Assembly: GCA_041649955.1 (NCBI GenBank)
Contig: JBAZMD010000001.1
Span: 68,079-132,078 of the forward strand
Length of the DNA: 64,000 nt
Source: Patescibacteria group bacterium
Lineage (GTDB): Bacteria > Patescibacteriota > Patescibacteriia > UBA2591 > JAQUPP01
Reading direction: 5' to 3'
Positions 18,816 through 45,397 of the stretch are shown here, in pieces. A program made the translations under genes and the position numbers. The notes under the pieces are model-generated. The model saw only the letters and a list, made by a program, of their open reading frames with translations, ran no database searches and had not been told where the DNA came from. Position 1 is the stretch's first letter. Every line of letters begins with the position of its first letter.

Positions 18816-19034
18816 TTACTTAATTTTACCAAGTTTTCTTAAATATTCCATTTTCTCGCGAGACGATTTTCTGCACAAAGCGCTTGCTCTGCGAAGAAGC
18901 TTGCTTTGCGGTTTAACATAAAATTGGCCTTTTTTGGCAAGGTCAAGCACGCCGCTTCTTTTAATGCGTTCGCTGAATCTTCTTAAAAAAATATTTAAGG
19001 ATTCGTTTGGTTTTCTTTTAAGTTCAATACTCAT
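18816..19034 (-). CDS. rpsU: 30S ribosomal protein S21
   Basis: 72 aa, basic, canonical S21 sequence. Confidence 0.85.
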   Translation of the reverse strand: MSIELKRKPNESLNIFLRRFSERIKRSGVLDLAKKGQFYVKPQSKLLRRASALCRKSSREKMEYLRKLGKIK

Positions 19035-19256
19035 ACTTTATATTATAATATATAATAATTAAAAAGCAAGCCCCACCACATGGAAATTATTGTTTTTCTG
19101 TAAAATTACGATTTAATAAGTATAAATTAAAAAAAATATTTTAGTTAGATATTTGAAATTATTAAGCATATAAAAAAACAAGAGAACAGTAATTTTAATA
19201 ATTTCCTTGTGGTGGGGCAAGCCTATTCTAACACATATTTTTATAGACGGGAAGAA

Positions 19257-25343: not shown

Positions 25344-25378
25344 ATAATAGCAAAAATTTTGATTTTTGTCAATCCCCT
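25344..25378 (-). promoter_or_regulatory. stereotyped promoter GGGGATTGACAAAAATCAAAATTTTTGCTATTAT (read on minus)
   Basis: TTGACA-17-TGcTATTAT; one of >12 near-identical promoters. Confidence 0.55.
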
Positions 25379-26237
25379 ATTTTTGTTCTTCTTGCTTCCT
25401 AGATTGTACAATTATAGCTTTTTCTACTAGTTCAATATCATTAGGAAGTTTCTTCGCTTCAAAGTCGCCATTATTATCTTGTGAACTAATTTTTTCATAA
25501 AGTAACTTTAATCTATTTTGTTTTTCATCAGTAAGATTCCAACCTTTTTTGAAATCTTCCGTAGATAAAGGGATGTCATATCTGTATAAAATTTCGTTTT
25601 TAATAAAACCGGCATTTTTTAATAATTCTAATAAGGCTTGTTCATCTGTGATAAATTTTTCAACTGCTACTTTTTCTGCAATAATCTTTTCCCTTTCTGT
25701 ATAAAGATAATTAGTCATTTGATTATTTCGAACGGCCGGTGAAACTAAAGCGGATAAAATAAGCTTGCCATCATTTTTTAAAACCCTATTCACTTCTGAT
25801 AGAGCTTTTATCTGTAAGGGTTTTGGAAGATAATCTAAAACCTGTTTTATGGTAATTATGTCGACTGATTTATCATTCAGGGGAATGTCAATAATATCCC
25901 CTGGAAGTTTATCATAACCCTTTTTATCAGGAATCTCATTAAGCATGTCTAGATTCCTGTCAATAAAAATTGTTTTAATGTTAATTCCTTTGTCTTTTAA
26001 TTTCTTCTCAAATTCTTTATTAAAAAAATCCCCGCATATTCCGGGACCGCAACCAATATCAGCTAAAATAATTTCTTTTTTCTTAGCTATTTCTTCAAGA
26101 TCTAAACCGCGAAACATATTCTCTAATACGTCTTCTCTGGCCTGATAACCACGCAAGGATTCTCTATAATTTTTTATCCTCCAAGTATCTCTTGAAACAA
26201 TGTCGCCAGTTGAAACTCCTTTTTCAATATTTGTCAT
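25377..26237 (-). CDS. class I SAM-dependent methyltransferase
   Basis: 286 aa; motif I ILADIGCGPG, post-II LKNDGKLIL. Confidence 0.7.
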   Translation of the reverse strand: MTNIEKGVSTGDIVSRDTWRIKNYRESLRGYQAREDVLENMFRGLDLEEIAKKKEIILADIGCGPGICGDFFNKEFEKKLKDKGINIKTIFIDRNLDMLNEIPDKKGYDKLPGDIIDIPLNDKSVDIITIKQVLDYLPKPLQIKALSEVNRVLKNDGKLILSALVSPAVRNNQMTNYLYTEREKIIAEKVAVEKFITDEQALLELLKNAGFIKNEILYRYDIPLSTEDFKKGWNLTDEKQNRLKLLYEKISSQDNNGDFEAKKLPNDIELVEKAIIVQSRKQEEQK

Positions 26238-26266
26238 AATTTTGATTATATTTAAAAAAAATTAAG

Positions 26267-26614
26267 CTATTTTGAACCGGAATTTAATAAATTTTCAATT
26301 ATAGATAATTTATCTCCTGAAATATTCTTTAAAATTTTTGAGAAATAGTCAGTAGTAACATCATTTGTAACTTTTTTAGTTATGGCTTTAATTTCTTTTT
26401 CAGAATAATTTTCTTTAAGAAAATTATCTATTTCTTCATAGTTGAAATTTCCGTCCTTTGATTTATAACCTTTTTCTGTTAATGCTTCAACAATAATATT
26501 GGTTGATATTAAATCTCCCAATTTCTTTACGCTATTATTAATTTCGCTTTCCGAAAATTCAAGCACATTAAGAATTTTATAAATCTTTTCAATTTCTTCA
26601 GCGGCTATATTCAT
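26267..26614 (-). CDS. hypothetical protein
   Basis: 115-aa ORF, operon-like spacing. Confidence 0.4.
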   Translation of the reverse strand: MNIAAEEIEKIYKILNVLEFSESEINNSVKKLGDLISTNIIVEALTEKGYKSKDGNFNYEEIDNFLKENYSEKEIKAITKKVTNDVTTDYFSKILKNISGDKLSIIENLLNSGSK

Positions 26615-26639
26615 ATATTTGTAATGACTAAAAAATTTA

Positions 26640-27065
26640 TTATATTTTTTTTGATTTTTCCATTTTAATTTCTCTGTCCAATTTGATACGTTGAATTGCG
26701 CTCTTTATCCCCTCTGAAAAAATGAGTATTCCCATTCCTGTAACGGATATAGCAAGGGTTTCTGCTGCATGAATTTCCCCTCTTGTTAATGCTTGTCCCA
26801 TAATATTTATCATTTGTTCCTGATTTAAAAATGCTATTCTGGACATTTCTAAACCAGCAAGCGTACTAAGGGTTCCGAAAAATTTAGCAGCCGTATCTTC
26901 CAATTCATGAGGTCTGAGAATATTTAAAACATTTTTTATTTTATCAAAGACAGATTTTTGTTTTTCTTCAAAAAAATCCTTACTTAATTTTTCTGGATTT
27001 TTTTCTTGATCTATTTGTTGTTCCGGAGTTAGTATCTCTTCTGGAATTGGTTTTTCTCCGTTCAT
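26640..27065 (-). CDS. hypothetical protein
   Basis: 141-aa ORF preceded by consensus promoter at 27126-27153. Confidence 0.4.
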   Translation of the reverse strand: MNGEKPIPEEILTPEQQIDQEKNPEKLSKDFFEEKQKSVFDKIKNVLNILRPHELEDTAAKFFGTLSTLAGLEMSRIAFLNQEQMINIMGQALTRGEIHAAETLAISVTGMGILIFSEGIKSAIQRIKLDREIKMEKSKKI

Positions 27066-27196
27066 ATATTTACCTCATTAAGATTGTTTTTAAACAATCT
27101 TTTAATTGATTATTTATCTATTTTCAGAATAGCATATTTTAAGGAATTTGTCAATTAACCGTTCAGTTAACGCTAAGGAATGACAATTTCAACTGT

Positions 27197-28054
27197 CTAC
27201 TTTTTAATCTTTAAAATATAAATTGGCATAAATTCCGTATAAGTCCAACGAGGAGCTTCTACAATTGCTTTAATGGCAAAATATTTTTTAAGCATATTCT
27301 CAAATTCTTTTTTAAAAAAAGTAATATGAATGATTTTACCACCGTGTTTCTCTATATTGTGTATTTTCCAAACATCTTCTTTTCTAAGTTTTATTTCCCC
27401 TTTTTCCAAGGCAGGATTAAAAAGATCAAACATTTTTTTCACAGACCATTCTTTCGTTTTTTCGTTGTATATTTTTTTCTTCCATTTTGTATAGTATCCT
27501 AGGGCAAACCAAAACATAAGCCAAGTGGTTTTTTTCTGATTATATTGTTTTTGAAAATAAGAAAAATTTTCTTGCGGTTTCTCCGGCAAATAAATAAAAT
27601 TGCGCGTAATAAAATATCCATCGGGTTTTAAAAGTTTGTTGATGTTTTTTAATAATTCAGGATGAAGTTTAACCGGTATATTATTAAGAGAAGCATCAGC
27701 AAGTACTGCGTCAAAACAATGCTCCGGCAAAAATTGTACCATTTTTAACCAATCGCATCTCATCATTAAATTCTTATCATCGTCTCTAAATTTCATTGTT
27801 TGATACATTGATTCAATGACATTAAAACTTATATCAATTGCTAAAGTTTCGCAGCCCAAACCAATGGCCATGTCTCTTAATTCCGGCGTAGCGCCCAAAA
27901 CTAAAACACGCGGATCCTTTTTTCCCTTAATGGCTAATTTCAAATATTTTTTATAAATATCTAATTCTTCTTTTATCGGCGCTGAAGACCCTTCCCGCTT
28001 AGCGCGGGAAGAAGCTACTTTTTTTATATCCCAACGTGACAATATTGTTTTCAT
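27197..28054 (-). CDS. SAM-dependent methyltransferase, paralog of 38786-39673 and 39646-40479
   Basis: 285 aa; VLVLGATPELRD...LKPDGYF; C-terminal KYFAIKA motif shared with the two paralogs. Confidence 0.6.
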   Translation of the reverse strand: MKTILSRWDIKKVASSRAKREGSSAPIKEELDIYKKYLKLAIKGKKDPRVLVLGATPELRDMAIGLGCETLAIDISFNVIESMYQTMKFRDDDKNLMMRCDWLKMVQFLPEHCFDAVLADASLNNIPVKLHPELLKNINKLLKPDGYFITRNFIYLPEKPQENFSYFQKQYNQKKTTWLMFWFALGYYTKWKKKIYNEKTKEWSVKKMFDLFNPALEKGEIKLRKEDVWKIHNIEKHGGKIIHITFFKKEFENMLKKYFAIKAIVEAPRWTYTEFMPIYILKIKK

Positions 28055-30125: not shown

Positions 30126-30668
30126 CTAATTTTTAAGCGAAAATCTCCATTTTTTGTTTGCCCAATAAGGTCCGGCATAATCAATCCCAACTCTCTTAGT
30201 CGCAAAAATGCGGGATTTATTTATTTTTTCTCCTCTGTCTTCCAACCAAAATCTTTTGCTTTCAATAACATCTTCGCCGTAAAATGATTTGTCCAATTTT
30301 AAATATCTACAAAGTTTTCCCGGCCCGGAAGTTAAATTTTTTTCTTTAGAAGCTAGAGCGCGAATTAAAACGCATTCCGGCTTGCCTGATTTAGAAGTAG
30401 TGATATTCAATTGCCAATACATGCCATAAACCAAATAAATATAAATATGCCCGCCCTTGAAATATTCAGCAATATTTCGAGAAGTCATTCGATTGTTATA
30501 AGCATGGCAAGCTCTGTCTTTTGGGCCGACATAAGCTTCTGTTTCAATAATTTTTCCTTCTAATTTTTTATTGCCGATTTTTCTGACAATATATTTCCCC
30601 AATAATTCCTTGGCTACTTTTAAAGTCGGCCGAGTATAAAAATTTCTGGTTAATTTTTTTATTTTCAT
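30126..30668 (-). CDS. mpg: DNA-3-methyladenine glycosylase (Mpg/AAG family)
   Basis: 180 aa; ETEAYVGPKDRACHAY and GHIYIYLVYGMYW are Mpg signatures. Confidence 0.8.
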   Translation of the reverse strand: MKIKKLTRNFYTRPTLKVAKELLGKYIVRKIGNKKLEGKIIETEAYVGPKDRACHAYNNRMTSRNIAEYFKGGHIYIYLVYGMYWQLNITTSKSGKPECVLIRALASKEKNLTSGPGKLCRYLKLDKSFYGEDVIESKRFWLEDRGEKINKSRIFATKRVGIDYAGPYWANKKWRFSLKN

Positions 30669-30823
30669 CCCTCACCCTTCGACGATAATATTCGCCCTCG
30701 TATTTTCCAATTGCCTTTTATAAAATAAAAATAAATTTTCTTGAATCCAGATTAAACTGAATAAATTAGTAAAGACAGGCTCGTATTTGGAAAATAACAT
30801 CGTCGAAGGGTGAGGGATAAACT

Positions 30824-30858
30824 AAAGCCCTAGCTTTTTAATTAAGCTAGGGCTTTAA
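30824..30858 (-). terminator. perfect hairpin aaagccctagc-N12-gctagggcttt, terminator of giant gene 30882-37808
   Basis: 11-bp GC-rich stem with flanking T/A runs. Confidence 0.55.
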
Positions 30859-30881
30859 AATTAATATCCTATTCTAACAAT

Positions 30882-33800
30882 TTATTTCGCGGCTAAGAAT
30901 TTCGGCGTGACTAAATTCTCGGCAAAATCTGAAATTGTTCCGCCGTCAGAATAAGTTTCAGCCTTAGAAATAGTCATTACCGGCACTTTGCTGTAACCAT
31001 TGTTGGTTAAAGCTTTGGCGGATAATTTATATTTCTTGCCGTTCTGAATCAGATAAATCTGAGAAGTTCCCGTGTATTTAACCAATGTTCCATTAGGATG
31101 TTTAGTCGTGGAATCAATCGTATCGCCTAAAGGATAATTGAATTTGGATAATAAATCATCAGGCACCCAAGTCACCAATTTCCATTTCGGATCATTGAAA
31201 AGTTTCTGATAAATCGCTGAAGATTTAACCGGTCTCAATTTGCCGTCAGAAACCATGAATACTGCCGAAGCGCTTAAACCGTGAAGCGATGTAGTCTTGC
31301 CTCTGAATAATGAACCGTCGCGGAATGTCATTGCTACGCCTTCAGAATATTTCGCAAATTCTTCAGAAGTAACCTTCTTGACTGTTGAGAAATTGGATGG
31401 ATAACCCCAAGAGAGATAAACATTAAGATGCGGGAAAACGTGCGCCTTGCCGTCCAAAATCATATAAACCGCGCCTGGTTGAGCAGTACAAGTCGGACAA
31501 ATAACCAAATCTCTATTTTTGAGATTATAAGTTATAACTTCTGCTGTTTCTTCTGATTCAGAAATAATTATTGCTGAAATTATTGAAGAGAGATTAAAAG
31601 TCTTATCTCTGAAACGGATATAAACCACTTTTTCTCCCTTACCAACTGGTAGTAACCAAGAACGAGTAGCTTGATACGGTTCCCAATTAATACCGACAAA
31701 ATCAATCGTATTACTAATCATCATTTCCGCGGCATCAGTAGCAGTAATGTTTAAAGTAACATTTCTGGAAGTAGTTTTCGCGGCACCACTATTTATCTTT
31801 AAGGATAAATCTTTTGGACCAAGATTACCTGCATTGCCACCACCTCCTGAACTGCCACTCATTGGGGTCGAATCTCCGCCAGCAGTAACAAACTTTCCTC
31901 CGGTAATACCGCCAGGTGTAAAATGGTTTGTGGTAACAATTATAACATTATTAGTTGCATCGCGAACCACTGATTTATAATTTTCCCAAGTGTTTGTGGT
32001 GTCATCAAAATATTTTGGCGTAATATCAGCTTCAGTATATCCATAATCTGTAATTAAATCCGGATCATAAGGGAATGTAATCTTTACGTCATTATCAAAT
32101 TGAGTGATTTCTTGACCAGTAGAGTCCTTAGCCGTGAAATCATAGTTAACGCCAAGCGGTTTATCTTTAGCATCCGGTTTCACTGATACCGTAGTTTGAT
32201 TTTCATCACCAACAGTCGGCGTAATAGTTACGGTAACTGTGCCACTGCTGGCTAAAGCTCCGGCTGGAATTTCAAGCGTCAGACCATTTGTAAGTTCAAT
32301 AGTTTTACTGTCTGAAGCGTTGAAAGTCGTAGTTTTAGCTTCAGGAACGGCAAGACCTGTGGTAACAAGAGTTAAATTCTTAGTTTGAGCGCCTGCTACG
32401 GTTATAACTTCAGTCGCAGCGCTTTCATAAAGGACTCCATCAATTTTGGCCGTGGCCTTAACATACCATGTTTCACCGGACTTAACTTTTAAAGTATAAG
32501 TTCCGTCAGAAGCCATTGTACCGGTTCCCTTATCCTCAGACCAAGCTTGTATCATTGCTTGTTTTCTAACGCTGTCTAAAGTAACCTCACCGGTGATAGT
32601 GGCATCTGATAAACTGAATTGAAGATCCTTACCTGTTACATTGGAATCGCCAACCGTCACACTGAGTAATGGCGGGTTAATCAAATCTCTCGCATCCCAA
32701 GGAGGAATACCGGCACCAATTTTGAAAGTACCACTGGTAACATTTAAAGTATAAGTGCCGTCATTTCCGGTAAAAGTACCAACACCCAAACCGCCCGGAC
32801 CCTTAAAATCATTTTTGGTCGTTTCATCACCAAAGTCAGCATAGACCCAAACTCCACTCATACCAACATCATCCGGATCCGTGATTGTACCGCTGATTGT
32901 TTTATCAAGTTTTTTAAGTTGGAAATTACGAGTAGTTGTACTATCGGCAATAACGGTTGATTTTACGTCTTCGGCTACTATTTTGTATTTATCATTATCA
33001 TCTCCAAAATTCATCATCGGATCAATAAAAGCGTCAACGTACCAACTGCCTGCTGAAACTTTTAATGAATATTTATCATTAACACTGCTTGGAGCAAATT
33101 CTGTTTGCGACCAGCCGCCATTTTCTTTATCACCATTGATAAAAGCGCGAACTCCTGTCACAACCGTATCTGTTCCTGCAGTATAAGAACTATCGCTATT
33201 AGTATCAAGATAAAATTTACCTTCAATCGTAGCATTATTCGGTGCCACCACTAAATCAATTTCTTTACATCCGGTTGTTTCGTCAGTACAAGTATCGCTT
33301 TCACCAACAGTAACAGTTTTAGTTACGGTTAAAGTATATTTAGAACCCGGAGGCGTATTTAAACCTAATTCATAACTGCCGAGCGGAACTTTAATTTCAG
33401 TATAACCATTAGCTAATCCTCCGCCGGCAAAACCACCTTTATCCATACCTGCTCCCATTGCTCCGCCGCCACCGCTGCCGCCACCTACAGCTGTTCCACC
33501 ACTACCTGCATCGCCGCTTCCACCTGCCATCATTTTCGGATCACCGAAATCAATAAAATCATTTACTGTCGGATCCGTATCTTTAACCCAAACTCCACCC
33601 CAAATATCGGAAACACGATTACCGTCAGCATCCACTACATTTACTTTAAGCAGACCATCGGCTACCTTTAATAAAAAGTCATTATTATCAGAAGTTTGAT
33701 TGGCGGTTATTGTTACTTGTTGCGGACCACCTTGATAAATATATTGAGTTGACATTGGCATAATCATTACGCCCCAATTTCCTTCACTGACAGTTAAATC

Positions 33801-36800
33801 AAATCTGCCGGTATTAGAATCTGTTTGTGTATTAGCCCAGCCCGGTCCATTCATTTGCCAAGCATTAACCATCACACTGCCAATTGCATTACCGGCCGAA
33901 TCTGTAACCGTTCCTTTAATATGAGCATTCTTTGCTGTTAAAATAAGTGTGCCTGCGTCAGTTGTTTGTTCAGAAATAGCTTTGATTTTAACCGGAGTGG
34001 AACCGCCATAACTCTGACCTTGTTCGCCCCAGTTTGGATTAGCCACCAAATCATAAGTACCAGCTGGAACTTTAAAAGTAAAACGTCCATCAGAATCAGT
34101 ATTGGCACCATTGCCACCACCCATCATACCGCCGCTATTGGCCATTACCCAAGAATTGGCAATTGCCGTAGCACCGGTTGGATCTTTAACTAAACCTGTA
34201 ATAATAGCATTGGCCACTTGAACTTCAAAATCCAAACCAGCATCAAGTATAGTAGCGCCTCCCGGACAATTTCCCACTGTACCGCGGCATTCCGTGCTGC
34301 CATCTTCGGTAAAAGTAGTTCTCTTTGGAGATTCATTATAAACCCAATCAGGTTGACCCATGCTCCAATCAGGATTTACACTTAACCACCAGCCGCCGCC
34401 GGCAAGTTTTAAAGTATATTCACCACTTGAATTTGTTAATGTTTCAAAATGTCCACCTCCCATATCGCGATTAGCTTGAACGCGGGCATTAGCGACTAAT
34501 GCACCGCTGCCCTTTTTAGTCACTGTACCGGTTAAAGTTTTTGTTGGGACAGTTAAGGTAATTAAATTATTTGCCTGAGCCACATTGGCCACTTTAACTG
34601 TGCCTACGTCATCAGCAACATCAACGGTTAATCCGCTTGGTTGAATCCAAGCTTTTTCACCGCCCCAAGGCAAATTGATTTCCATGGATAATCCGGTGGC
34701 ATTGGTTAAACCGCCGATTCGGAAATAACCTTGATCATCAGTTGAAGCACCACCCTGATTTTGCCACATTTGATCATGAATCATAATCCAAGACCATTGG
34801 ACAGGTTGATCATCCGCAGTTCCGGCAACTTCATCCGCACCCGGATTCATTACTCTTCCGGTAACTTGCGGCGTACCAAGTATGAGTTTACCGCCGGTTC
34901 CATAAGTCACACCTAAATCTAAATTAGAAGTTCCGGCAGCTACGGCAGAGGAAATTGTAATATTAGAATATTTTTTTGTTGAATAATTACGATAAACAGC
35001 TTGTTCTTCAGGCGTCCCCCAACGTGGAGCTTCAATTTCTAAAGCATAAGTTCCTGCTGTCACACCACCAAAAGAGAATTGACCGTTCTGATTAGTGTTT
35101 GTGCCATACCAACCACCCGTAGTACCGCCTTGCATTGGTCCTTCAATATGGAAATTAATCCAAGCATTAGCCACAGTTGTAGTAGTATTTGGAATAACAA
35201 CCGTACCGCTAATATTCGGAGTGCTTAAAATTATATTTTTGGTTCTGCTTGATTGAGAACTGGTAACTGTAACATTCTGAACAAGTTTTCTCCCGCAAGT
35301 AATATTTCCGCAACCATTCCAAGGATTTGCTTCCACTTCATAAGTACCAATAGTCACACCGCCAATGGCATAATTTCCATTAGCATCTGTTTGTGACCAT
35401 TGAGAACCGGACATTGAACCTTGTGATCGCATATTAATACCAACATTAGTTGCACCGATATCAGGATAACCCACCGGATCATCGCATTCAGCTTGAGTCA
35501 CAGTTGAATTGTCGTCATGTTTCGGTTTGCAAACACGACCGGTTAAACCATTAACTGTCGGGTCGCTTAACAAAACAAGTAAACTATTATTAGCAATTGT
35601 CAAAGCAGTACCCGGATCTGATACCTCGGTAATAGTAGTTCCGGCAACACTTACTACCATGCCTTGCGGCGCAGCATAAAGACTGCCGTATTGAGTATTG
35701 ACATTAAAATTCCAGCTGCCCGTAGGAACATTTAAACTAAATGTTCCATCACTTTGAGCACTGGCGCCATAACAACTACCGGCTGATTGATAAGGACAAA
35801 AATCAATCCAAATTCCGCTTTGTCCGGTTGTACCGGTTGGATCTTTAACTACACCAGTAACATTGGGTGCTGATAAAGTAAATGCGTCATCATCAACGCT
35901 ATCAAGAGTGTCAGCTTGATCTTTTAAATCATTAGAAGTAGTTGAAGTAATGGAAACTGAAAAATTACCGCTGGCACAAGCACTGCCGCTCGCCGGTTGA
36001 ATTCGAAGATTATAAGTACCAAGTGCCACGCCACCAAGAGAAAAATTACCACTATCATCAGTATTTACACCATACCAAGAACCATCTTTATCCATATTTA
36101 TCCAAGCGACGGTTGTTACACCACCGCATTTTACTTTTCCAAAAACATTTGGCAAAGCAAAAGTTTTATTTCCCAAATCAGTAATTTGTCCATCCGTAAC
36201 ATCAATGGCAAATTCAGCAGTTCTTGTTCTTGGATAACTTCTAAAGTCGCCGCTGTATGGCGGCTCAATTTCTAAAATATAATGAGTACTGTCTGTCACT
36301 CCGCCAAAATAAACTATGCCATCAGCATCGGTCTGTGCCCATTGATTGTAAGACCAATCCATAGTATGAAGACCAATATTGGCATAAGGCACTGGCAAAC
36401 CAGGCTGAGGATTACTTGCCGTAGCAGTATCACCTAAAGTACCAGGAGCCTTAATCGTTACTTTAACATTTTGAGCGGATAAATTGATATTAATGCCGGT
36501 TGCAGTTTGACCTGAAGTTAAACATTGAGAAGTTCTAACGCTTTTATATTGTAAAACTCTGTCTTGATAATCTTTGGGTCTGGCTTCAATTTCATAACAT
36601 TGGCTGCTGGTATCATTTGGAACATAAAGTTTCCATGTTCCGTTTGGACCGGTTGTTGTTCTTTGCTCATAGTCCCAAGTATAAGGACGAGCAACCACTT
36701 CTACGCCTTCCAATAATGTTGCGCCACTGGGAGATTTAACCGTACCGGAAAGAGTGGCTGTTCTAAAAGCTTGGGTGGCTAGTGTTGCCACTGAACCCAC

Positions 36801-37808
36801 CGTAGCTGTTTGACTGCTTAACTTGGAGGGCGCCACATAAGTCGCGCCGGCCGGGGTGCTGAATTGTATATTATAACTTCCGGTCGCACTTAATAATAAA
36901 GCATATTTGCCATTGGAATGAGTTTCCCCAAGCACGACATTTCCCATTTGTCCGGGCGTAAAAGATTCAACCTGGACTCTATCTATGTCACCGGCCGTAT
37001 CTGAGGTAAGACTACCTATAAATATGCCTTGCGTGCTATTCCAAATTATAAATGGTCGTGAATCTGAAACACGACGCGTATTCAAATCACTAATTATTAT
37101 ATCTACGCGGCCGTTTAATCCGGTTGGAATTGTAGCCGTAAGTTCAGTAGCTCCGGCAGTTGCAGGCGTGGATGTTACACTTCCTCCGTTAAAATTCCAA
37201 TATATTTCTGTTGCGTCAGTTGAGGTGGAATAATTAGAACCGGTAATCGTTACTGTATCGCCGACATTGCCGCACGGATAACCATTGCAAAGATCAGACT
37301 CAGTAGTATTGGTTATATAATTGATAATCGGATCAATAGAAGCGCTAACAGTATTGTTGGCAGTAAAATCTTCTATAGTTTGAGTTCCTGCTAAATTTTT
37401 AATATCTCCGGCTGTCATCTGCCAAGTTTGTCCTTCGCTTAATTTTAAATTTTTTAAACCGTAAATTCTTAAACGATAATCATTCTCGCCCGCCTGAATA
37501 CTTTGAGTTGACATATCATAAGGACTGAATCGACTTAATGTTCTGTCTGTTAATCCCGCTCCTGTTTCAAAAATAAAATTACGCAAATCTGTCGCGTAAT
37601 TGGTTGCACTTCCTGCTTCGGTTGTTGAAGATGGGGTTGTTTCTGCGGAAAATTGTCCGTTGAATGTAATTTCCGCTGAAGTTGTCGAGACCGTAATATC
37701 GGTCACGGCTATTGGTGCTAATGCACTCACTGATGTGGACAGCCCCATTGACCACAACATGGTCGTGGCTGTCACAAAAATTGAAAAAAACTTTTTTGTG
37801 TTGTTCAT
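30882..37808 (-). CDS. giant (2308 aa) secreted surface protein with many Ig-like/CarboxypepD_reg-like beta-sandwich repeats, Gly-rich segment and triple C-terminal ~50-aa module
   Basis: N-terminal signal peptide; SGTVKSPSGATLLEGVEVVA-type repeats; C-terminal GxLxKxxxSxxVYxIxNGxK modules shared with 8760-10340. Confidence 0.7.
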   Translation of the reverse strand: MNNTKKFFSIFVTATTMLWSMGLSTSVSALAPIAVTDITVSTTSAEITFNGQFSAETTPSSTTEAGSATNYATDLRNFIFETGAGLTDRTLSRFSPYDMSTQSIQAGENDYRLRIYGLKNLKLSEGQTWQMTAGDIKNLAGTQTIEDFTANNTVSASIDPIINYITNTTESDLCNGYPCGNVGDTVTITGSNYSTSTDATEIYWNFNGGSVTSTPATAGATELTATIPTGLNGRVDIIISDLNTRRVSDSRPFIIWNSTQGIFIGSLTSDTAGDIDRVQVESFTPGQMGNVVLGETHSNGKYALLLSATGSYNIQFSTPAGATYVAPSKLSSQTATVGSVATLATQAFRTATLSGTVKSPSGATLLEGVEVVARPYTWDYEQRTTTGPNGTWKLYVPNDTSSQCYEIEARPKDYQDRVLQYKSVRTSQCLTSGQTATGININLSAQNVKVTIKAPGTLGDTATASNPQPGLPVPYANIGLHTMDWSYNQWAQTDADGIVYFGGVTDSTHYILEIEPPYSGDFRSYPRTRTAEFAIDVTDGQITDLGNKTFALPNVFGKVKCGGVTTVAWINMDKDGSWYGVNTDDSGNFSLGGVALGTYNLRIQPASGSACASGNFSVSITSTTSNDLKDQADTLDSVDDDAFTLSAPNVTGVVKDPTGTTGQSGIWIDFCPYQSAGSCYGASAQSDGTFSLNVPTGSWNFNVNTQYGSLYAAPQGMVVSVAGTTITEVSDPGTALTIANNSLLVLLSDPTVNGLTGRVCKPKHDDNSTVTQAECDDPVGYPDIGATNVGINMRSQGSMSGSQWSQTDANGNYAIGGVTIGTYEVEANPWNGCGNITCGRKLVQNVTVTSSQSSRTKNIILSTPNISGTVVIPNTTTTVANAWINFHIEGPMQGGTTGGWYGTNTNQNGQFSFGGVTAGTYALEIEAPRWGTPEEQAVYRNYSTKKYSNITISSAVAAGTSNLDLGVTYGTGGKLILGTPQVTGRVMNPGADEVAGTADDQPVQWSWIMIHDQMWQNQGGASTDDQGYFRIGGLTNATGLSMEINLPWGGEKAWIQPSGLTVDVADDVGTVKVANVAQANNLITLTVPTKTLTGTVTKKGSGALVANARVQANRDMGGGHFETLTNSSGEYTLKLAGGGWWLSVNPDWSMGQPDWVYNESPKRTTFTEDGSTECRGTVGNCPGGATILDAGLDFEVQVANAIITGLVKDPTGATAIANSWVMANSGGMMGGGNGANTDSDGRFTFKVPAGTYDLVANPNWGEQGQSYGGSTPVKIKAISEQTTDAGTLILTAKNAHIKGTVTDSAGNAIGSVMVNAWQMNGPGWANTQTDSNTGRFDLTVSEGNWGVMIMPMSTQYIYQGGPQQVTITANQTSDNNDFLLKVADGLLKVNVVDADGNRVSDIWGGVWVKDTDPTVNDFIDFGDPKMMAGGSGDAGSGGTAVGGGSGGGGAMGAGMDKGGFAGGGLANGYTEIKVPLGSYELGLNTPPGSKYTLTVTKTVTVGESDTCTDETTGCKEIDLVVAPNNATIEGKFYLDTNSDSSYTAGTDTVVTGVRAFINGDKENGGWSQTEFAPSSVNDKYSLKVSAGSWYVDAFIDPMMNFGDDNDKYKIVAEDVKSTVIADSTTTRNFQLKKLDKTISGTITDPDDVGMSGVWVYADFGDETTKNDFKGPGGLGVGTFTGNDGTYTLNVTSGTFKIGAGIPPWDARDLINPPLLSVTVGDSNVTGKDLQFSLSDATITGEVTLDSVRKQAMIQAWSEDKGTGTMASDGTYTLKVKSGETWYVKATAKIDGVLYESAATEVITVAGAQTKNLTLVTTGLAVPEAKTTTFNASDSKTIELTNGLTLEIPAGALASSGTVTVTITPTVGDENQTTVSVKPDAKDKPLGVNYDFTAKDSTGQEITQFDNDVKITFPYDPDLITDYGYTEADITPKYFDDTTNTWENYKSVVRDATNNVIIVTTNHFTPGGITGGKFVTAGGDSTPMSGSSGGGGNAGNLGPKDLSLKINSGAAKTTSRNVTLNITATDAAEMMISNTIDFVGINWEPYQATRSWLLPVGKGEKVVYIRFRDKTFNLSSIISAIIISESEETAEVITYNLKNRDLVICPTCTAQPGAVYMILDGKAHVFPHLNVYLSWGYPSNFSTVKKVTSEEFAKYSEGVAMTFRDGSLFRGKTTSLHGLSASAVFMVSDGKLRPVKSSAIYQKLFNDPKWKLVTWVPDDLLSKFNYPLGDTIDSTTKHPNGTLVKYTGTSQIYLIQNGKKYKLSAKALTNNGYSKVPVMTISKAETYSDGGTISDFAENLVTPKFLAAK

Positions 37809-38590: not shown

Positions 38591-38611
38591 TCCTTCATCC
38601 CTCCACGCTTG

Positions 38612-38782
38612 TGGCGAAATTCGCCTGAACGATGTCGCGGAAAAACCTTAGAAAATTAAGGAGTTTTATTGAAAAACTCATCTGTTTGACGACCTATTTG
38701 GGAGGAGTTATGAATTTTTCAGAATAAAACGAATATAATTTTCAAGGATTTAGAGCGTTGAGTGAAGGTGAATTTTGCAACA
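38612..38782 (+). repeat. intergenic repeat family B, copy 2
   Basis: ~90% identity to 3100-3270. Confidence 0.6.
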
Positions 38783-38785
38783 CTT

Positions 38786-39673
38786 TTATTTTTTTCTTAA
38801 TTGATAAATGGTGTAGAATTTGGAAAAAGCGGGATGTTTAACCGGCTCTTTTATTTTTTTAACAATCGTAAAATATTTTTTAACCAGCCGGTCAAACATT
38901 TTTTCCGGCAGCATAGTAACGCGATGCGGCTGATTGTAAAAATCAAAAGTCATTAAATCATATTCTTTTTGAGTGATTTCTTTGTTTTTTAATTTCTCGC
39001 CTAAAAACAGATTAAATTTGTTCATCTCGGTAGTGTATTCTTTCTTGTTGTAAAATCGCGGATCTGAATAAGCGCAGCTTTCCCAAATATAAATTTTATT
39101 ATTCAATGATTTGAAATAATTCGGCTGGCGCTTGCATTTTTCAATCACGCTTTCCGCGGTCTGCAATATCGGACTCGCGTTGGTAACGGTAATAATCAAT
39201 TCTCCTCCCGGTTTCAGAATAGTTTTCATTGCCTTAAAAAATTGTTCGTACAACTCAAGATTGACCAAATTATTGGTTACGGCATGGCCGATAATGCAAT
39301 CAAATGTTTTGGGAAGAAAATATTTTGTCGCTTCTGTCCAAAGACCGTTGGTTATTTTTTCTTTGCTTTCTATTTTTTTTAAACCGTTCATTGTTTCAAC
39401 CATATTTTGGCTGAATTCCAAAAGCGTGACCTTAAATTTCATTTTTGCCAGACAATCCCGAATGGCCGGCGTACAGCCTAAAACCAAGGCCTTATTGCCT
39501 GATTTCTTTTTAATGATTTTTAAAATTTTAGCGCAAGCGGCAATATGCTTTTTTGAAGGCACAAAAGGCGGCGGAATTTTGGCATAGGTTTGAGTATACC
39601 CTTCTTGCCACACTTTTTTATTTATTGCTTCTTTTTCCATGTTAGTTATTTTTTTAAAAAATAAATTGGGCAT
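38786..39673 (-). CDS. SAM-dependent methyltransferase (paralog group with 27197-28054, 39646-40479)
   Basis: 295 aa; ALVLGCTPAIRD...LKPGGELIIT. Confidence 0.6.
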   Translation of the reverse strand: MPNLFFKKITNMEKEAINKKVWQEGYTQTYAKIPPPFVPSKKHIAACAKILKIIKKKSGNKALVLGCTPAIRDCLAKMKFKVTLLEFSQNMVETMNGLKKIESKEKITNGLWTEATKYFLPKTFDCIIGHAVTNNLVNLELYEQFFKAMKTILKPGGELIITVTNASPILQTAESVIEKCKRQPNYFKSLNNKIYIWESCAYSDPRFYNKKEYTTEMNKFNLFLGEKLKNKEITQKEYDLMTFDFYNQPHRVTMLPEKMFDRLVKKYFTIVKKIKEPVKHPAFSKFYTIYQLRKK

Positions 39674-40479
39674 TGGTGAACAAAAGGATGATCTGTACCG
39701 TATTTAACGGCAGAAATCTTGAAATATTTTTTCATCATTTTCTCCCCTTCTTTTTCCGGCAGAGTCCACCAAGTTTTGCCCAACGGCCATTGTTGATGAA
39801 AAATCTTAATCAATTTGGCTATTTGCTTTTTTCTGGCCGCGTTCTTTTCATCTTGCCAAGATTTTTTAAGCGCTGAACTGATGCCGTCCGTACTCGTACT
39901 ACTGTCTTTTGCTTTCCAAACAACAAATAATCCGCCATAAGCAAATTCACTGATACTTTCTTGATTAAATTTTTTCTTAATCACGAGATTAATAAATTCT
40001 TGAATTGATTTTTTGGGAAAAATAGGAAAAAGATGGCGGGTAATAAAACAACCGCCCGGCTTTAAAACCTCTCTGATTTTAGCCAAAAATTTCGGCTGTA
40101 ATTTAATCGGAATATTACAAATAACAAAATCTCCCAGAACAAAATCATAATAATTTTGAGCCACGGGCATAGTCAGCCAGCCGGCCTTAATCCAAGTTTC
40201 CTTGTCTGCATTTTTTTGATATTTCACCCATTTGGTCATAGCCATTAGCATATCCAAACTAATATCAACGCAAGTCACTTCTGCTTTTTGGCGATGCACC
40301 AAGTCGCGAAATTCGGGCGTTCCGCCTAAAATCAAAATTTTAGCCGGTTTTTTATGTTGAGCAATGAATTTTTCTATAATCTGGCATTCGCTTTTTGACG
40401 GCCGGTTGGGCGGAGTATAAACTTGCCATTGATGTGCCATTTTTTGCGCGTGATAATAAGCTACTTTTGGTTCTGCCAT
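39646..40479 (-). CDS. SAM-dependent methyltransferase (paralog)
   Basis: 277 aa; ILILGGTPEFRD...LKPGGCFIT; overlaps downstream paralog by 28 nt. Confidence 0.6.
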   Translation of the reverse strand: MAEPKVAYYHAQKMAHQWQVYTPPNRPSKSECQIIEKFIAQHKKPAKILILGGTPEFRDLVHRQKAEVTCVDISLDMLMAMTKWVKYQKNADKETWIKAGWLTMPVAQNYYDFVLGDFVICNIPIKLQPKFLAKIREVLKPGGCFITRHLFPIFPKKSIQEFINLVIKKKFNQESISEFAYGGLFVVWKAKDSSTSTDGISSALKKSWQDEKNAARKKQIAKLIKIFHQQWPLGKTWWTLPEKEGEKMMKKYFKISAVKYGTDHPFVHQCPIYFLKK

Positions 40480-40507
40480 AATTGTCGATTTAGATCCGCC
40501 AACTGGC

Positions 40508-40657
40508 GGAGAAATAAATTTTCGCTACAATTTATGAGCACCCTGCTTCAAACCTCTAAACAAAATCAGTTCAAAGATAGCGTAAGCCGAAGGCGTTTCC
40601 ATGAATTAAATTAATTATTTTTTCACGAACCTTCTTCGGGTTTGGGGCGTGGGTCGC
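40508..40657 (+). repeat. intergenic repeat family A, copy 3
   Basis: Between two MTase genes; conserved gaaataaattttcgctac and ttcgggtttggggcgtgggt. Confidence 0.55.
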
Positions 40658-40669
40658 CATAAAATAATT

Positions 40670-41506
40670 TTAATTATATTTTTGAAGAATAAAATAAAAA
40701 TATTTTCTTTTTCCATTTTTAAATGAATTGCATAACTCTGAATCTTTAACTCCCGCGAATTGCTTGCCGAGATTTTGCAAAAATTTCGGCAAAAATTGCC
40801 TAACAAGTTTCATCCTTCTTTCATTATCCAAATTCAATGCCCTAAAAACATTTTCCGTTATATCTTCTTTTTTTATTATTTTCAATTTTGATTTATTAAT
40901 GGAGTCAAAAAAAGATTGAATTAATTCCCGGCTTCTGAAATCGGCGAATAAAAAATATCCTTTAGGTTTTAATATTCTTTTCGCTTCCTGTAAAAATTTA
41001 TTAAAATTAGGGTAAGAATGAGAAGATTCTATGTTTATCGCCGCGTCAAAACTTTCATCTTCAAAAGGAATTTTTATGGCGTTTCCGTATTCAAATTTTA
41101 AATTTTTTTCATAATGATGCTCTCTGTCAAATTTTATTTCTGCTTTGGAATTATCTATGCCGACGATCAGTTTGGGCTTGAAATATCTGGCAATGAAAGA
41201 AGTTCCGCCGCCCTTCCCGCATCCTACTTCTAAAACTTTTTTATCTTTTATATTAATAGAACTCACTACCTTATGATACAACTGGGCGCAATATCTGTTT
41301 TCTTCATCAATTTTTTCCAATCTTAATTTTTCCCGGTATTGATATCCGTAATTCAAAAAAATCACCTCTCCTTTTGAATCAATTTTTGAAAGATGATTAT
41401 ACCACTTATTCACCACTAAAGACTGGCCCTTAAGATAAATCTTGTTGACTAAATTAAAAAAATTTAATATCTTTATTAATTTTTTAATCCAATCTTTCTT
41501 CGTCAT
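40670..41506 (-). CDS. class I SAM-dependent methyltransferase
   Basis: 278 aa; motif I VLEVGCGKGGGTSF, LKPKGYFLFAD. Confidence 0.7.
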   Translation of the reverse strand: MTKKDWIKKLIKILNFFNLVNKIYLKGQSLVVNKWYNHLSKIDSKGEVIFLNYGYQYREKLRLEKIDEENRYCAQLYHKVVSSINIKDKKVLEVGCGKGGGTSFIARYFKPKLIVGIDNSKAEIKFDREHHYEKNLKFEYGNAIKIPFEDESFDAAINIESSHSYPNFNKFLQEAKRILKPKGYFLFADFRSRELIQSFFDSINKSKLKIIKKEDITENVFRALNLDNERRMKLVRQFLPKFLQNLGKQFAGVKDSELCNSFKNGKRKYFYFILQKYN

Positions 41507-41513
41507 ATATTTT

Positions 41514-42962
41514 TTATTTTCGCCCTCTTTTAATTATTATAACCTTCCCGTGTGTTGCGTCAACTTCTATCAAATCACCGTCTTTCAAAACCTTAGTGGC
41601 GATTTTGGTGCCGATAATACACGGCTTTCCCATTTCACGGGCAATGATAGCCGCATGACAAGTTAATCCGCCATCATTTGTAATTATTGCTTTAGTTTTT
41701 GAAATTGCCCCCATAAAATCTGGAGTTGTCATAAAAGTAACAAGAATTTCTCCTTTTTTCATTTTAGATATTTCGGCCGCATTTCTGATAATTCTAACTC
41801 TACCCTTAACATAACCGGCCGAGGCTGACACACCTTTAATAATCCGTATTAAAGAATCTTTAACAATTTTATTCTTGGGTATAAAAATTTTTATTTTTCC
41901 TTTATGTAATCTTATAAAATAATTATTGTTTCTTTTTTTAAGCTCGGGGGTGGAAATTAAAAGTTTTCCAATTTTTAAACTGGCAATTAATTCATCTGAA
42001 GTCAAATTAGTTAAATCAGTATAATCAACAGAAAGTCGCTTGCCAACTTCTGAAAAAAAGAATCTCATTAAGTATTCCGAGTTTTCTATGAAAGAAAGCA
42101 TTTCTGTTCTATAAAAAGACAGATTAGCTAAATCTTTAAATAATTTTTTTGTAATTTTATCAATTGCATATTTTTTATATAATGCCTTCTTGTCAGAAGC
42201 TAAATCAATTTTCATTTTGGGATAATTTTTTTTCTTTAGAGCAATTTTTATTTCCTCAATGGTGTCTATAATTGTAGGGTATTTATCAGTAGTAAAAAAG
42301 ACACAACCCATTCTCACATATTTTTGATGAAATTTATTTATTATTTTTTTTAGTCTTTTGGGGGAATTATCAATTATTTCATTCAATTTTCTATTAAACA
42401 ATTTTTGGTATTTCGCTCTTCTGATAAAATTAACGATTTTTTGCAAATCATCCTGCTTTTTTTCGATATAATTTTTTCTAGAGGACTGCATTAATATCCC
42501 AAATTCTTCATCTTCTTGTTTTTTATTAACAACTGATAGCAAATTTTTAGTAAGTGCATCAATGCTAAAATTTCCTGTATACACATAACCTATAAAACGC
42601 GCATAATAATCTGTCCAAGCTGTAAATAATTTTATCAATTTTCTATTTGAATACTTCTCTATTTTATAGGAGCTGACCTTTTTACTGAATTTATATAATT
42701 TCCTTCCATATTTTTTGTATTCAGCAAAAAGTTTTTTTAATTTACCATTTTTAATATTCTTCAATATTTCATGATGCGCAACCTCTATATCTTCTAACCC
42801 AAAATAAGCTTGAGCTTTAATCTGACTATTTATATATTTATAATCTTGGATTATCCTGCTATGCAAGGGTGTTTTAGAAACATAACCCGCTAAGGCGTAT
42901 TTAGTGGCTATATATCTGGGAAGCAGAGGTAGGGCCTTTTGTGTTGTAGCTATCCATTTCAT
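41514..42962 (-). CDS. PEP-utilizing-enzyme mobile (swivel phosphohistidine) domain protein with novel ~380-aa N-terminal region (P1)
   Basis: 482 aa; C-terminus ILVTFMTTPDFMGAISKTKAIITNDGGLTCHAAIIAREMGKPCIIG matches the PpsA/PPDK His domain; no ATP-grasp or TIM barrel. Confidence 0.75.
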   Translation of the reverse strand: MKWIATTQKALPLLPRYIATKYALAGYVSKTPLHSRIIQDYKYINSQIKAQAYFGLEDIEVAHHEILKNIKNGKLKKLFAEYKKYGRKLYKFSKKVSSYKIEKYSNRKLIKLFTAWTDYYARFIGYVYTGNFSIDALTKNLLSVVNKKQEDEEFGILMQSSRKNYIEKKQDDLQKIVNFIRRAKYQKLFNRKLNEIIDNSPKRLKKIINKFHQKYVRMGCVFFTTDKYPTIIDTIEEIKIALKKKNYPKMKIDLASDKKALYKKYAIDKITKKLFKDLANLSFYRTEMLSFIENSEYLMRFFFSEVGKRLSVDYTDLTNLTSDELIASLKIGKLLISTPELKKRNNNYFIRLHKGKIKIFIPKNKIVKDSLIRIIKGVSASAGYVKGRVRIIRNAAEISKMKKGEILVTFMTTPDFMGAISKTKAIITNDGGLTCHAAIIAREMGKPCIIGTKIATKVLKDGDLIEVDATHGKVIIIKRGRK

Positions 42963-42980
42963 AATTTAATTTTAAATTAT

Positions 42981-43925
42981 TTACAAAGTCGTAATCGGCC
43001 TACTTTGTACGATATAGAACTTTTTATTTTCCAAAGCCCACTCAATATCGCAGGGAAATTTATAATGTTTTTCAATTTGAGCGCACAATTTAGCCAATTC
43101 AATAATTTGTTTGTTGTTGAATTTTTGTTTAGCACGCAATTTATTCGGCACTTTTACCCATTCGCTGCCAATGCCTGATTTTTTCTGAACAATCATTTTT
43201 TCTTGCTCTGAAATATTAATATCAATAATTTTCCATGTTTTTTTATTAATCACATAACTGTCAGGCGTAATATGTCCGCCGACAATCGCCTCTCCCAAAC
43301 CCCAACCGGCTTCAATAATCAGCTGGTTTTTATCTTTTGTAACAGGATGAGTGGTAAAACAAATGCCTGAAATTTCCGATTGAATCATTTTCTGAATTAC
43401 CACGGCCACGGAAACTTTTGATTTTCTCATTCCTTGTTCCCGGCGATAAACAATTGCTCTTTGAGTAAAAAGCGAAGACCAGCAATCTTTAACTCGACCT
43501 AATAAATTCTGCCGAGTTGTATTGAGATAACTTTCCAGTTCTCCGGCCCATGAAGCGACTGACGAATCTTCGGCTGTCGCGCTGCTCCGAACCGCCACAT
43601 GTTTTGCTTTTAATTTATCAAAATCAATTAAAATTTCTTGCTGTAAATCTTTAGGCATTTTTGCGTCATGAATTAAATCGCGAATTAATTTTGATGCCTG
43701 ATCAACCGAATTAACATCTTTATAATTCACTTTATTTAAAGCCGATTCAATTTCAACATCTATATCAGTTTCTGTTAAAAATCTTTCAAAGGCATCAGCC
43801 AAAACCACAAATCCCGGCGGCACTTGAATTCCCGCTTGTGTCATTTCTCCCAACGACGCCCCCTTGCCTCCGGCAATTCCAACATCTTTTTTTGATAATT
43901 GTTTAAAATTTTTAGTAAATTTCAT
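42981..43925 (-). CDS. stand-alone PEP synthase/PPDK N-terminal ATP-binding (ATP-grasp, PPDK_N) domain protein
   Basis: 314 aa; AGGKGASLGEM, AVRSSATAEDSSVASWAG, AGWGLGEAIVGG, IEKHYKFPCDIEWA, YIVQSRP all parallel the E. coli PpsA N-terminal domain. Confidence 0.85.
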   Translation of the reverse strand: MKFTKNFKQLSKKDVGIAGGKGASLGEMTQAGIQVPPGFVVLADAFERFLTETDIDVEIESALNKVNYKDVNSVDQASKLIRDLIHDAKMPKDLQQEILIDFDKLKAKHVAVRSSATAEDSSVASWAGELESYLNTTRQNLLGRVKDCWSSLFTQRAIVYRREQGMRKSKVSVAVVIQKMIQSEISGICFTTHPVTKDKNQLIIEAGWGLGEAIVGGHITPDSYVINKKTWKIIDINISEQEKMIVQKKSGIGSEWVKVPNKLRAKQKFNNKQIIELAKLCAQIEKHYKFPCDIEWALENKKFYIVQSRPITTL

Positions 43926-43945
43926 ATATTTTTATTTTAATTTAT

Positions 43946-45397
43946 TTATTTATTTTTTAAAATTTTGACTAATCCATGATTTGCATTAACTTCCACCAAA
44001 TCACCGTCTTTCAAAACCTTAGTGGCAATTTTGGTGCCAACCAAGCACGGAATCCCTAATTCCCTTGAAACAATAGCCGCGTGGCAAGTTAATCCTCCTT
44101 CGTCGGTAATAACCGCCCCTGCTTTTTTTATTGCCACAATAAATTCAGGCGAAGTCATTGGGGCAACCAAAATTTCACCTTGCTTCATTTTATTTAGATT
44201 ACGGGGTGTTAATAATATTCTGACTCTTCCCTGAATTTTACCGCAACCGGCGCTGACAACCATACCATTTATTATCCCAGATTCTCTATTGACTTCCTTT
44301 TTCAAGAAAGGCCTGATTAAATTTATCTGTTTTTTCCCGCTCTTGAGAGTCAAAACATTTTTATAATAATGAATTAAGGCAAATTTTTTTCTATTTGCTA
44401 TTTCTTTAGAAGATACTTTTGCGCCATTTTTTAATAATTTGATAATTTCATTCGGCCAATAAAACATTAAATCGGAAAAATTAATTTTTTTTCTTCTGGA
44501 AATCTCTTTCAAGAATAAATCAACATAATGATTGGCGATAAAAATTTCTTTTTTCCTCGTATCCTGCCACCAGATTGAAGCCGAAAGCCTTTTAACTGTC
44601 TTAATGGTTTTTGCGTTAAGTTTATATTTTCTGAATAATTGATTTTTTTGAAAAATTATTTTTCTCGGCAAATTTTTGATTTCCTTTATTTTTTGATTAA
44701 CTTGCCTGATGCCTGATAATATTTTTTTAAAATACTCCGCTTTCAATTGTTTTTGTTCAAAATAACTGTTTCTAATCCAAAAATATCGTCGGATATGTTT
44801 TTCAATCAATTGATCAAATTTTTTTGTTCCCTGATATTTTTTTATTTCCAATAAATCCAATTCTTCTTTTTGATAAAAAGAAAGATTTTCCGGAGCGGCT
44901 AATTTTTCAAGGGCTGAAATAAATTCTTTTTGGTTGTCAATTTGCTTGGATAATTCTTCTTTTAAAATTTCTTCACCGCCCAAATTGGCAAGTTCCGGAA
45001 CTAATCCCACTCCCCAAAAATTTATATACAAATTGTGCCATTTATTGTAAGTATCGGCGAAGGCCTTATCAGTCAATAAACCGAGAGATTTTTCTGAAAT
45101 TTTCGTCTGGAAATTTTTTAATTTATTCAAGGCTTTTTTATAATCAGCTTGAACTTTTTTAAAATTTAAATCATTCAAAATCCATGTATTAAAATGTTTT
45201 CTTCCGGCTGTCCTGACATTTTTTTCATCGGAAATAAAAGTCATTTTATCTTTTGTAAAATAAAACAAAATCTCGGGCCAGTGATATTTGTAATAACGGG
45301 GCAAGTTCGTGGCAATCCCTATCATAAAATAGGATATATAAATCATTCTCCCGTCAATCGGTCCCCAAATCCAAAGTTTTTTTTGTGAATTAATCAT
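43946..45397 (-). CDS. PEP-utilizing-enzyme mobile domain protein, paralog P2
   Basis: 483 aa; C-terminus ILVAPMTSPEFIVAIKKAGAVITDEGGLTCHAAIVSRELGIPCLVG. Confidence 0.75.
   Translation of the reverse strand: MINSQKKLWIWGPIDGRMIYISYFMIGIATNLPRYYKYHWPEILFYFTKDKMTFISDEKNVRTAGRKHFNTWILNDLNFKKVQADYKKALNKLKNFQTKISEKSLGLLTDKAFADTYNKWHNLYINFWGVGLVPELANLGGEEILKEELSKQIDNQKEFISALEKLAAPENLSFYQKEELDLLEIKKYQGTKKFDQLIEKHIRRYFWIRNSYFEQKQLKAEYFKKILSGIRQVNQKIKEIKNLPRKIIFQKNQLFRKYKLNAKTIKTVKRLSASIWWQDTRKKEIFIANHYVDLFLKEISRRKKINFSDLMFYWPNEIIKLLKNGAKVSSKEIANRKKFALIHYYKNVLTLKSGKKQINLIRPFLKKEVNRESGIINGMVVSAGCGKIQGRVRILLTPRNLNKMKQGEILVAPMTSPEFIVAIKKAGAVITDEGGLTCHAAIVSRELGIPCLVGTKIATKVLKDGDLVEVNANHGLVKILKNK

Follow-up and report, generated by a model that had tools for sequence, protein, structure and literature searches.

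Genomic organization of the mpg locus

The window, as the whole stretch of DNA analysed here is called, comprises 64,000 nucleotides (nt) from a Patescibacteria group bacterium (GCA_041649955.1, contig JBAZMD010000001.1), and the present study deals with an inverted repeat that ends on the start codon of mpg, a gene for 3-methyladenine DNA glycosylase. Carried by the minus strand like the other features of the locus, mpg (30126..30668) is intact and encodes a product of 180 amino acids with a full-length match to Pur_DNA_glyco (PF02245; profile positions 2-178 of 181, E 2e-53), which bears out the identity given to it in the initial annotation of this DNA. Its start, MKIKKLT, is also used by P0001, a 92% homologue whose contig (from ERZ1426824, mpg at 155-691) includes 154 nt 5' of mpg. 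The sources of the mpg homologues and of the neighbouring proteins name metagenome-assembled genomes (MAGs) of the Patescibacteria / Parcubacteria group.

Upstream of mpg lies a giant surface-protein gene (30882..37808, 2308 amino acids, stop codon at 30882), which is terminated by a stem-loop of 14-15 bp, a perfect 14 bp in the window, followed by a U-rich tail (30823..30857). This hairpin is present in all relatives and, across five sequences, two of its pairs are changed on both sides and none is broken. It is a conserved structure, and a transcript of the giant gene would need to read through it to reach mpg. Between the stop codon and the terminator stands TGTTAGAATAGG (30868..30879), an extended -10-like motif (TG-n-TAGAAT) whose core AGAATAGGATATTAATTTT is conserved in relatives.

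The inverted repeat delimits a segment of 148 bp, named E1 (30669..30816), which begins 6 nt downstream of the terminator and consists of two 18-bp terminal inverted repeats (TIRs) separated by an AT-rich core of 112 nt (30687..30798). Read on the minus strand, the distal (5') arm CCCTCACCCTTCGACGAT (30816..30799) is followed by the 112-nt spacer, the proximal (3') arm ATCGTCGAAGGGTGAGGG (30686..30669) and the ATG of mpg (30668..30666), a layout that the initial annotation had described accurately. Complementarity between the arms is perfect over 18 bp (30669-30686 / 30799-30816). Since AT flanks both of them, the perfect repeat reaches 20 bp (30667-30686 / 30799-30818) and includes two bases of the start codon, the AT of the ATG; as RNA, the helix between the arms extends to 24 bp with one G-U pair. 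The proximal arm contains the GAAGGG noted earlier (30680-30675) and the sequence GGGTGA (30677-30672), located 3 nt 5' of the ATG, which is a putative Shine-Dalgarno (SD) sequence because it complements the 3' end that 16S rRNA usually has, the gene for this rRNA lying outside the window. The core comprises an inner 8-bp repeat (TTTTCCAA/TTGGAAAA), a direct repeat (AATACGAG) and the hexamers TTCAAG-17-TATAAA. E1 as a whole has 35% G+C, the window about 35%.

The inverted repeat is real and well beyond chance. Even with up to three mismatches the 18-mer has only two sites in the 64-kb window, for a chance expectation of 0.02, and two matches were obtained in none of 100 shuffles. Folded as RNA, the region reaches -59 kcal/mol (z = -7.5), a value that no shuffled sequence equalled.

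A small protein encoded in the core was considered and rejected. An open reading frame (ORF) of 42 codons (30672..30800) runs across it from an ATG at the inner end of the distal arm to a TGA within the proximal arm, 4 nt before the mpg ATG, but it has no match among 1.84 billion representative proteins and none in Pfam, and it is uncalled as a gene on L001, another assembly from this strain (ENA ERZ27247363). We judged it to be no gene.

Absence of the repeat from related loci

Informative relatives were found through the C-terminus of the giant protein and through a Q/N-rich protein encoded downstream of mpg. The giant gene, its terminator and the downstream gene are common to four related lineages, and the locus occurs in three states. 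In the window, the terminator is followed by E1 and mpg. In L046 and L052, it is followed by a Band_7 gene with its own terminator and then by a remnant of the 3' end of mpg of roughly 40-80 nt. In L047-L050 and L051, only a short spacer separates the terminator from the promoter region of the next gene, the intergenic total being 168-172 nt. The repeat is absent from all of these relatives. In every comparison, similarity to the window ends past the terminator at ...GGGCTTTAGT(T/C)TAT, and there the window goes on with the distal arm, whose first C marks its outer edge. Other mpg loci, at 78-80% protein identity, stand in other gene contexts and have no repeat upstream.

The short state helps to place the second border. 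Past the terminator tail, L047-L051 read ACA-ATGAAAAT-TTAAAAATTAGC, in which ATGAAAAT-TTAAAAATTAGC matches a fusion of the initial 8 nt of mpg with its final 11 nt plus the base that follows the stop; by our own estimate, the probability that an 8-mer would match by chance at the empty-site position is about 1e-4. The simplest reading would be that the short state arose through an internal deletion of mpg. Because the first 8 nt of the gene follow ACA directly, the ancestral ATG would then have stood 3 nt past the terminator tail, with neither repeat nor SD. An alternative alignment of the empty site weighs against this reconstruction: it derives ACAATGAAAATTT from the 3' end of mpg, ACAAAAAATGGAGATTTT, in which case E1 could predate the deletions. 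It seems less likely, as it needs two extra gaps and two substitutions. Under either alignment, mpg is ancestral at the locus and in the course of being lost in sister lineages, and the mpg 3' remnant beside the Band_7 gene in L046 and L052 supports its ancestral presence.

The 148-bp unit is an insertion or deletion whose left border coincides with the outer edge of the distal arm, while the placement of its right border depends on the empty-site reading that we prefer. The two arms remain perfect in a region that is about 14% divergent among relatives, as would suit a recent event.

Between the terminator of the giant gene and the Q/N-rich gene lies a slot that is in itself a hotspot of turnover (window 30126-30822, compared with L046 1556-2391 and L047 4890-4925), with an intact mpg here, a Band_7 gene and an mpg 3' remnant in two MAGs, and a near-complete deletion of mpg in two other lineages. 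From its sequence, E1 was also rejected as an integron attC-like cassette site: it is located 5' of mpg, no comparable repeat accompanies the Band_7 gene that replaces mpg in L046, and no integrase was found.

Sister foldback elements in the window

When the window was scanned for G+C-rich inverted repeats with spacers of 30-300 nt, an architecture like that of E1 was found at four further intergenic sites, so that the window holds at least four more foldback elements. These are E2 (19071-19217, outer end of the TIR CCCCACCACAAGGAAATTATT), E3 (53317-53431, CCCCCACACCA), E4 (54813-54962, CCCCCTCACAAGGAAAACCAT) and E5 (54170-54227, CCCCGCCACCTAGAAATTATA). All have C-rich outer ends (CCCC[ACT]C..) and cores of about 30 to 130 nt, and the terminal sequence CCCTCAC is common to E1 and E4.

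Several of these elements differ between relatives in a telling manner. E3 is precisely missing from L054, in which the flanks are 93-96% identical and GGGGTTGAC is single; in the window, TTGA(C) is duplicated around E3. Similarly, E2 is missing from GCA_028717225.1, the duplicated sequence being CTTG(C). In L054 the site of E5 holds a 135-bp element, of which E5 is an internally deleted form, and a second copy lies 600 nt away in L054 with 96% identity over 49 nt. Taken together, the empty sites, the duplications, the internal deletion and the second L054 copy mark E2-E5 as small non-coding insertion elements that behave as mobile.

The family to which they belong spans 58-150 bp, has ends CCCCACCAC..GAAATTAT and variants, and is also represented at positions 453-524 and 1050-1184 of L054. 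It is associated with a 4-bp duplication of the TTGA type, and most right ends abut a strong promoter with a TTGACA -35 box. At E3, E4, E5 and both L054 copies, the right-hand duplicate is itself this -35 box, and the promoters at E3, E4 and E5, with 10-11/12 consensus matches, are among the best in our promoter scan. It is as if the family inserted at -35 boxes and rebuilt them.

The differences seen among the sister elements are of presence or absence and of internal deletion, never of orientation, and this bears on the possibility that E1 is an invertible promoter segment, in which a recombinase would flip the 112-bp core between the 20-bp repeats and switch mpg on and off by phase variation. 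Perfect inverted repeats around a short AT-rich segment with weak promoter-like hexamers would suit such a device, and recombination would keep the arms identical. Yet the intergenic region is identical and in the same orientation in three independent assemblies (the window, L001 and L002, the last from Logan SRR8542065), no recombinase gene was found among the ORFs of the 64 kb, and the core has no good promoter in either orientation. We therefore rejected the inverton, which we hold to be very improbable.

Three further observations concern repeats of the window. The exact 12-mer TGTTAGAATAGG occurs twice, upstream of mpg (30868-30879, minus strand) and beside E2 (19222-19233, minus strand), each copy having a stop codon on one side and a hairpin or foldback element on the other. 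At both loci the core AGAATAGG is also conserved in relatives; a promoter, a signal for the 3' end and coincidence are all conceivable. An imperfect inverted repeat, CACCTTCACTCAACGCT ... AGCGTGGAGGGATGAAGG, its arms about 130 nt apart, closely follows the end of a gene and precedes a terminator at 38598-38778 (minus strand) and may be an old, degenerate foldback element. At 26824-26860 / 27106-27142, a 37-nt imperfect inverted repeat (73%) carries on both arms CAGAATAGCAT, which is reminiscent of AGAATAGG; one of the arms falls within an ORF that has no match in Pfam.

E1 as a probable miniature insertion element

[quoted passage not shown] E1 would have entered the gap of a few bases that separated the giant-gene terminator from the ATG of an mpg already present and devoid of SD. 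Its G-rich 3' end GAAGGGTGAGGG now abuts the ATG and resembles an SD, its C-rich 5' end being the exact complement. The explanation is ordinary in kind, a small foldback insertion.

E1 shares many features with prokaryotic MITEs such as ERIC, RUP and QMITE: it is shorter than 500 bp and contains no gene or transposase, its TIR of 18-20 bp is within the range of the class (about 4-30 bp), it is AT-rich, it occupies an AT-rich intergenic site and it would give a stem-loop transcript (PMC10969869). It is also polymorphic by presence or absence, with a border at the end of the repeat. It differs from the described MITEs in having no clear flanking direct repeat, copy number or known parent insertion sequence. 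With no second copy and no clear target duplication, we call E1 MITE-like and not a proven MITE.

Several observations weigh against this explanation. E1 is flanked only by AT / AT, a dinucleotide that is self-complementary and may just as well belong to the repeat, and the empty sites read TAT-ACA-ATG. Searched by BLAST, the 64-kb window, 81 kb of sequence from relatives, and plasmids and phages yielded no further copy of E1. The exact 18-mer has 14 single matches in 185,579 species-representative genomes (GTDB) and 24 in JGI metagenomes, all in unrelated organisms and none with both arms, about the number estimated for chance. A profile built from 10 repeats of the E2/E4/E5 TIRs and run with nhmmer reports all members of that family and misses E1 (E up to 10), E3 being likewise missed, and in global alignments the cores of E1 and its sisters are barely more similar than shuffled controls (z about 2.5). 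No transposase was found in the window, and what E1 does to mpg is something that we infer from the folding and promoter calculations described below.

On the strength of the profile search and the core alignments, E1 was rejected as a member of the E2/E4/E5 family. It resembles these elements in its C-rich outer ends (CCCTCAC.. in E1, CCCCCTCAC.. in E4), in its AT-rich core, in a size close to that of their full-length copies (135-150 bp) and in being a lineage-specific, intergenic insertion between a terminator and the next gene. The differences are equally clear. The family has the TIR CCCCACCAC(A/C)..GAAATTAT, a 4-bp duplication of the TTGA type and a right end always placed at a -35 TTGACA, whereas E1 has a different repeat, flanks (..GTTTAT and ATGAAA..) with no such duplication, and, unlike E3, E4 and E5, a right end that abuts a start codon instead of a promoter.

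The main rival, which we regard as rather unlikely, is that E1 is a one-off, non-mobile patch, created by a single illegitimate recombination, repair or inverted duplication event linked to the gene turnover of this hotspot and having neither transposition history nor function. E1 is single-copy across all the collections searched, has no convincing target duplication, escapes the E2/E4/E5 profile and sits in a rearrangement hotspot with three states among close relatives. On the other hand, neither arm is present in the empty sites, which makes the whole unit foreign and not a local copy; the association of perfect TIRs with an AT-rich core sized like those of demonstrably inserted sisters would have to be a coincidence; and the terminal CCCTCAC is shared with E4.

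Among known systems, the Correia elements (Correia repeat enclosed elements, CREE) of Neisseria are, with MITEs in general and REPINs, the closest parallels. They measure about 105-155 bp, have TIRs of about 20-26 bp and no coding capacity, are intergenic and often located 5' of genes, and vary by presence or absence between strains (PMC2649163, PMC10969869). When transcribed together with the gene that they precede, they form mRNA hairpins that are bound or cleaved by RNase III, and expression is altered (PMC2649163, PMC10969869). However, the host of E1 belongs to a different phylum, and E1 shows no sequence relation to CREE, from which we set it apart without alignment to the Correia consensus. 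CREE are Neisseria-restricted, carry a 26-bp Correia repeat and a TA / TA duplication where E1 has AT / AT, and exist in 100-250 copies where E1 is single-copy so far. No promoter created by an end of E1 is evident, and its proximal repeat covers the SD together with two bases of the ATG. E1 would work like a Correia element 5' of a gene and is no member of the Correia family. REPINs, which are REP doublets mobilised by RAYT transposases, occur in tens to hundreds of copies with a single RAYT gene (PMC3116915): for E1, no copy family was found and no RAYT-like gene was seen in the window.

Predicted consequences for mpg expression

A consensus scan, which recovers the strong promoters that adjoin E3, E4 and E5, found no promoter of the sigma-70 type facing mpg, either within E1 or anywhere from the terminator to the ATG. 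The initial annotation had proposed a promoter in the loop. Its hexamers are indeed present (30745-30740 / 30722-30717), but with 3/6 matches for the -35 and 5/6 for the -10, the last T of which is missing, the pair fails the consensus scan. A TATTAT at the right end of E1 has no -35 at a usable spacing. The best candidate nearby, TTCTTA-17-TGtTAGAAT, precedes the terminator hairpin, has a core conserved among relatives and is possibly a weak promoter. Given this lack of a consensus-quality promoter, mpg transcripts most likely start upstream, either by read-through of the terminator or at the TGnTAGAAT motif. As the ancestral ATG would have stood right after the terminator, mpg was probably always expressed in this manner.

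The two 5' leaders envisaged by the initial annotation behave differently when folded. With both arms in the RNA, the closing duplex reaches -44 kcal/mol and the stretch from SD to AUG has a mean unpaired probability of 0.000-0.001 at 10-37 °C (0.001 at 37 °C) and of 0.05 at 80 °C. When the RNA starts inside the core, this stretch is about 40% unpaired. Sequestration of the ribosome-binding site by the distal arm, as first suggested for an mRNA that includes this arm, is thus upheld, and the accompanying idea of a thermosensor is ruled out by the melting calculation. RNA thermometers are short imperfect helices that melt at about 30-42 °C. ROSE and fourU elements likewise pair SD and AUG in a hairpin of the 5' leader, but the E1 helix, with its 24 bp, is still closed at 80 °C, which points to a constitutive block or an RNase III substrate and not to a thermometer.

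Transcripts started upstream would carry the whole of E1, and the 24-bp closing helix would bury the ribosome-binding site and the AUG, so that translation would be blocked unless a nuclease specific for double-stranded RNA, such as RNase III, cuts the helix. Cutting by RNase III is plausible by length, a perfect or near-perfect duplex of 24 bp being long enough.

The opposite outcome is conceivable if E1 has been co-opted as an expression module, with a promoter in the core or at the right end from which an mRNA devoid of the distal arm would start, the G-rich end serving as a new SD. The leader inferred for the ancestor, TTTTATACA-ATG, had no SD, and E1 places GGGTGA before the ATG; core-started RNA would leave the start site partly accessible; promoters are known to arise at the ends of Correia elements (PMC2649163); and mpg is intact here while lost in three sister lineages. 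Nevertheless, no mpg-facing promoter of E1 passes a scan that readily finds those of E3, E4 and E5, for the reasons given above for TTCAAG/TATAAA and TATTAT, and the perfect arms suggest an insertion too recent for the integrity of mpg to be informative. We consider a co-opted module rather unlikely. For the insertion that we favour, we infer that silencing or processing of mpg is somewhat more likely than activation.

That the long-range helix is an evolved cis-regulatory RNA, which would hide the ribosome-binding site and be opened by a signal, a small RNA, a change in temperature or ribosomes translating the 42-codon ORF, seems very unlikely to us. The idea draws on the very stable helix that contains SD and AUG and on the 42-codon ORF, which spans the core from arm to arm and ends just before the mpg ATG. 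However, the structure is not conserved, being absent in all relatives including the mpg loci at 78-80% protein identity; it corresponds to no Rfam family; the helix stays closed as far as 80 °C; no relatives of the ORF were found, and the AUG of the ORF is likewise within the helix; and a perfect 20-bp match exceeds what an RNA function needs. A known RNA family was also rejected. At the Rfam gathering score the window yields one tRNA only, and the best sub-threshold match at the locus, to the plant microRNA hairpin MIR1919 (29.8 bits against a threshold of 85), reflects shape alone.

The view that the repair gene has an evolved control architecture has accordingly to be corrected. The repeat is absent from every relative found, starts where homology ends and is built like the recurring insertion elements of the window, and a ribosome-binding site within a perfect helix is here the footprint of a small insertion and not a conserved regulator. 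As such a footprint, E1 should not be catalogued as a riboregulator or thermosensor. An SD-like sequence does stand where the initial annotation saw the only one of this leader, but it is the G-rich end of the inserted element. The placement of E1 is particular in that its proximal repeat ends on the start codon and provides the only SD-like sequence of a gene that is decaying in sister strains. E1 offers a clean natural example of a foldback element which, placed on a start codon, supplies an SD-like sequence together with its perfect antidote.

The reduced genomes of the Candidate Phyla Radiation are usually thought to be poor in mobile DNA. Nonetheless, these 64 kb contain five small elements of the foldback type, some of which are demonstrably polymorphic by insertion and apparently prefer -35 boxes. 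A narrow literature search, which is weak evidence of novelty, found no paper on such foldback elements in Patescibacteria. As a speculation that we would not expect to hold in full, the clade may harbour undescribed small mobile elements of the foldback type, among them a family that targets TTGA and thereby rebuilds -35 boxes, and E1 may be a young member captured as a switch of the dispensable repair gene, in which read-through transcripts would be silent or dependent on RNase III and rare, internally started ones would use the end of E1 as a ribosome-binding site.

Additional features of the window

The gene for ribosomal protein S21 (18816-19060, minus strand) lacks an SD, carries a TATAAT 7 nt ahead of its ATG and looks leaderless. 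The gene that follows E5 (ATG near 54135) shows a similar arrangement. At 53440-53730 (minus strand), a strong promoter (TTGACA-16-TATACT) is followed by an SD and an ORF of 5 codons and then by about 200 nt of structured, apparently non-coding sequence up to a terminator, GGGGTGTGAGA..TCTCTCACCCC; the region has no Rfam match at the gathering score and its transcript could be a small RNA or a leader.

The block from 23.8 to 28.6 kb differs from that of relatives, which carry a sigma-70 gene there. Finally, three proteins with a phosphoenolpyruvate (PEP)-utilising mobile domain and a PPDK_N protein are encoded in tandem, and several paralogous genes for S-adenosylmethionine (SAM)-dependent methyltransferases are present (41514-46868, minus strand; 25377-28054; 38786-41506, minus strand).

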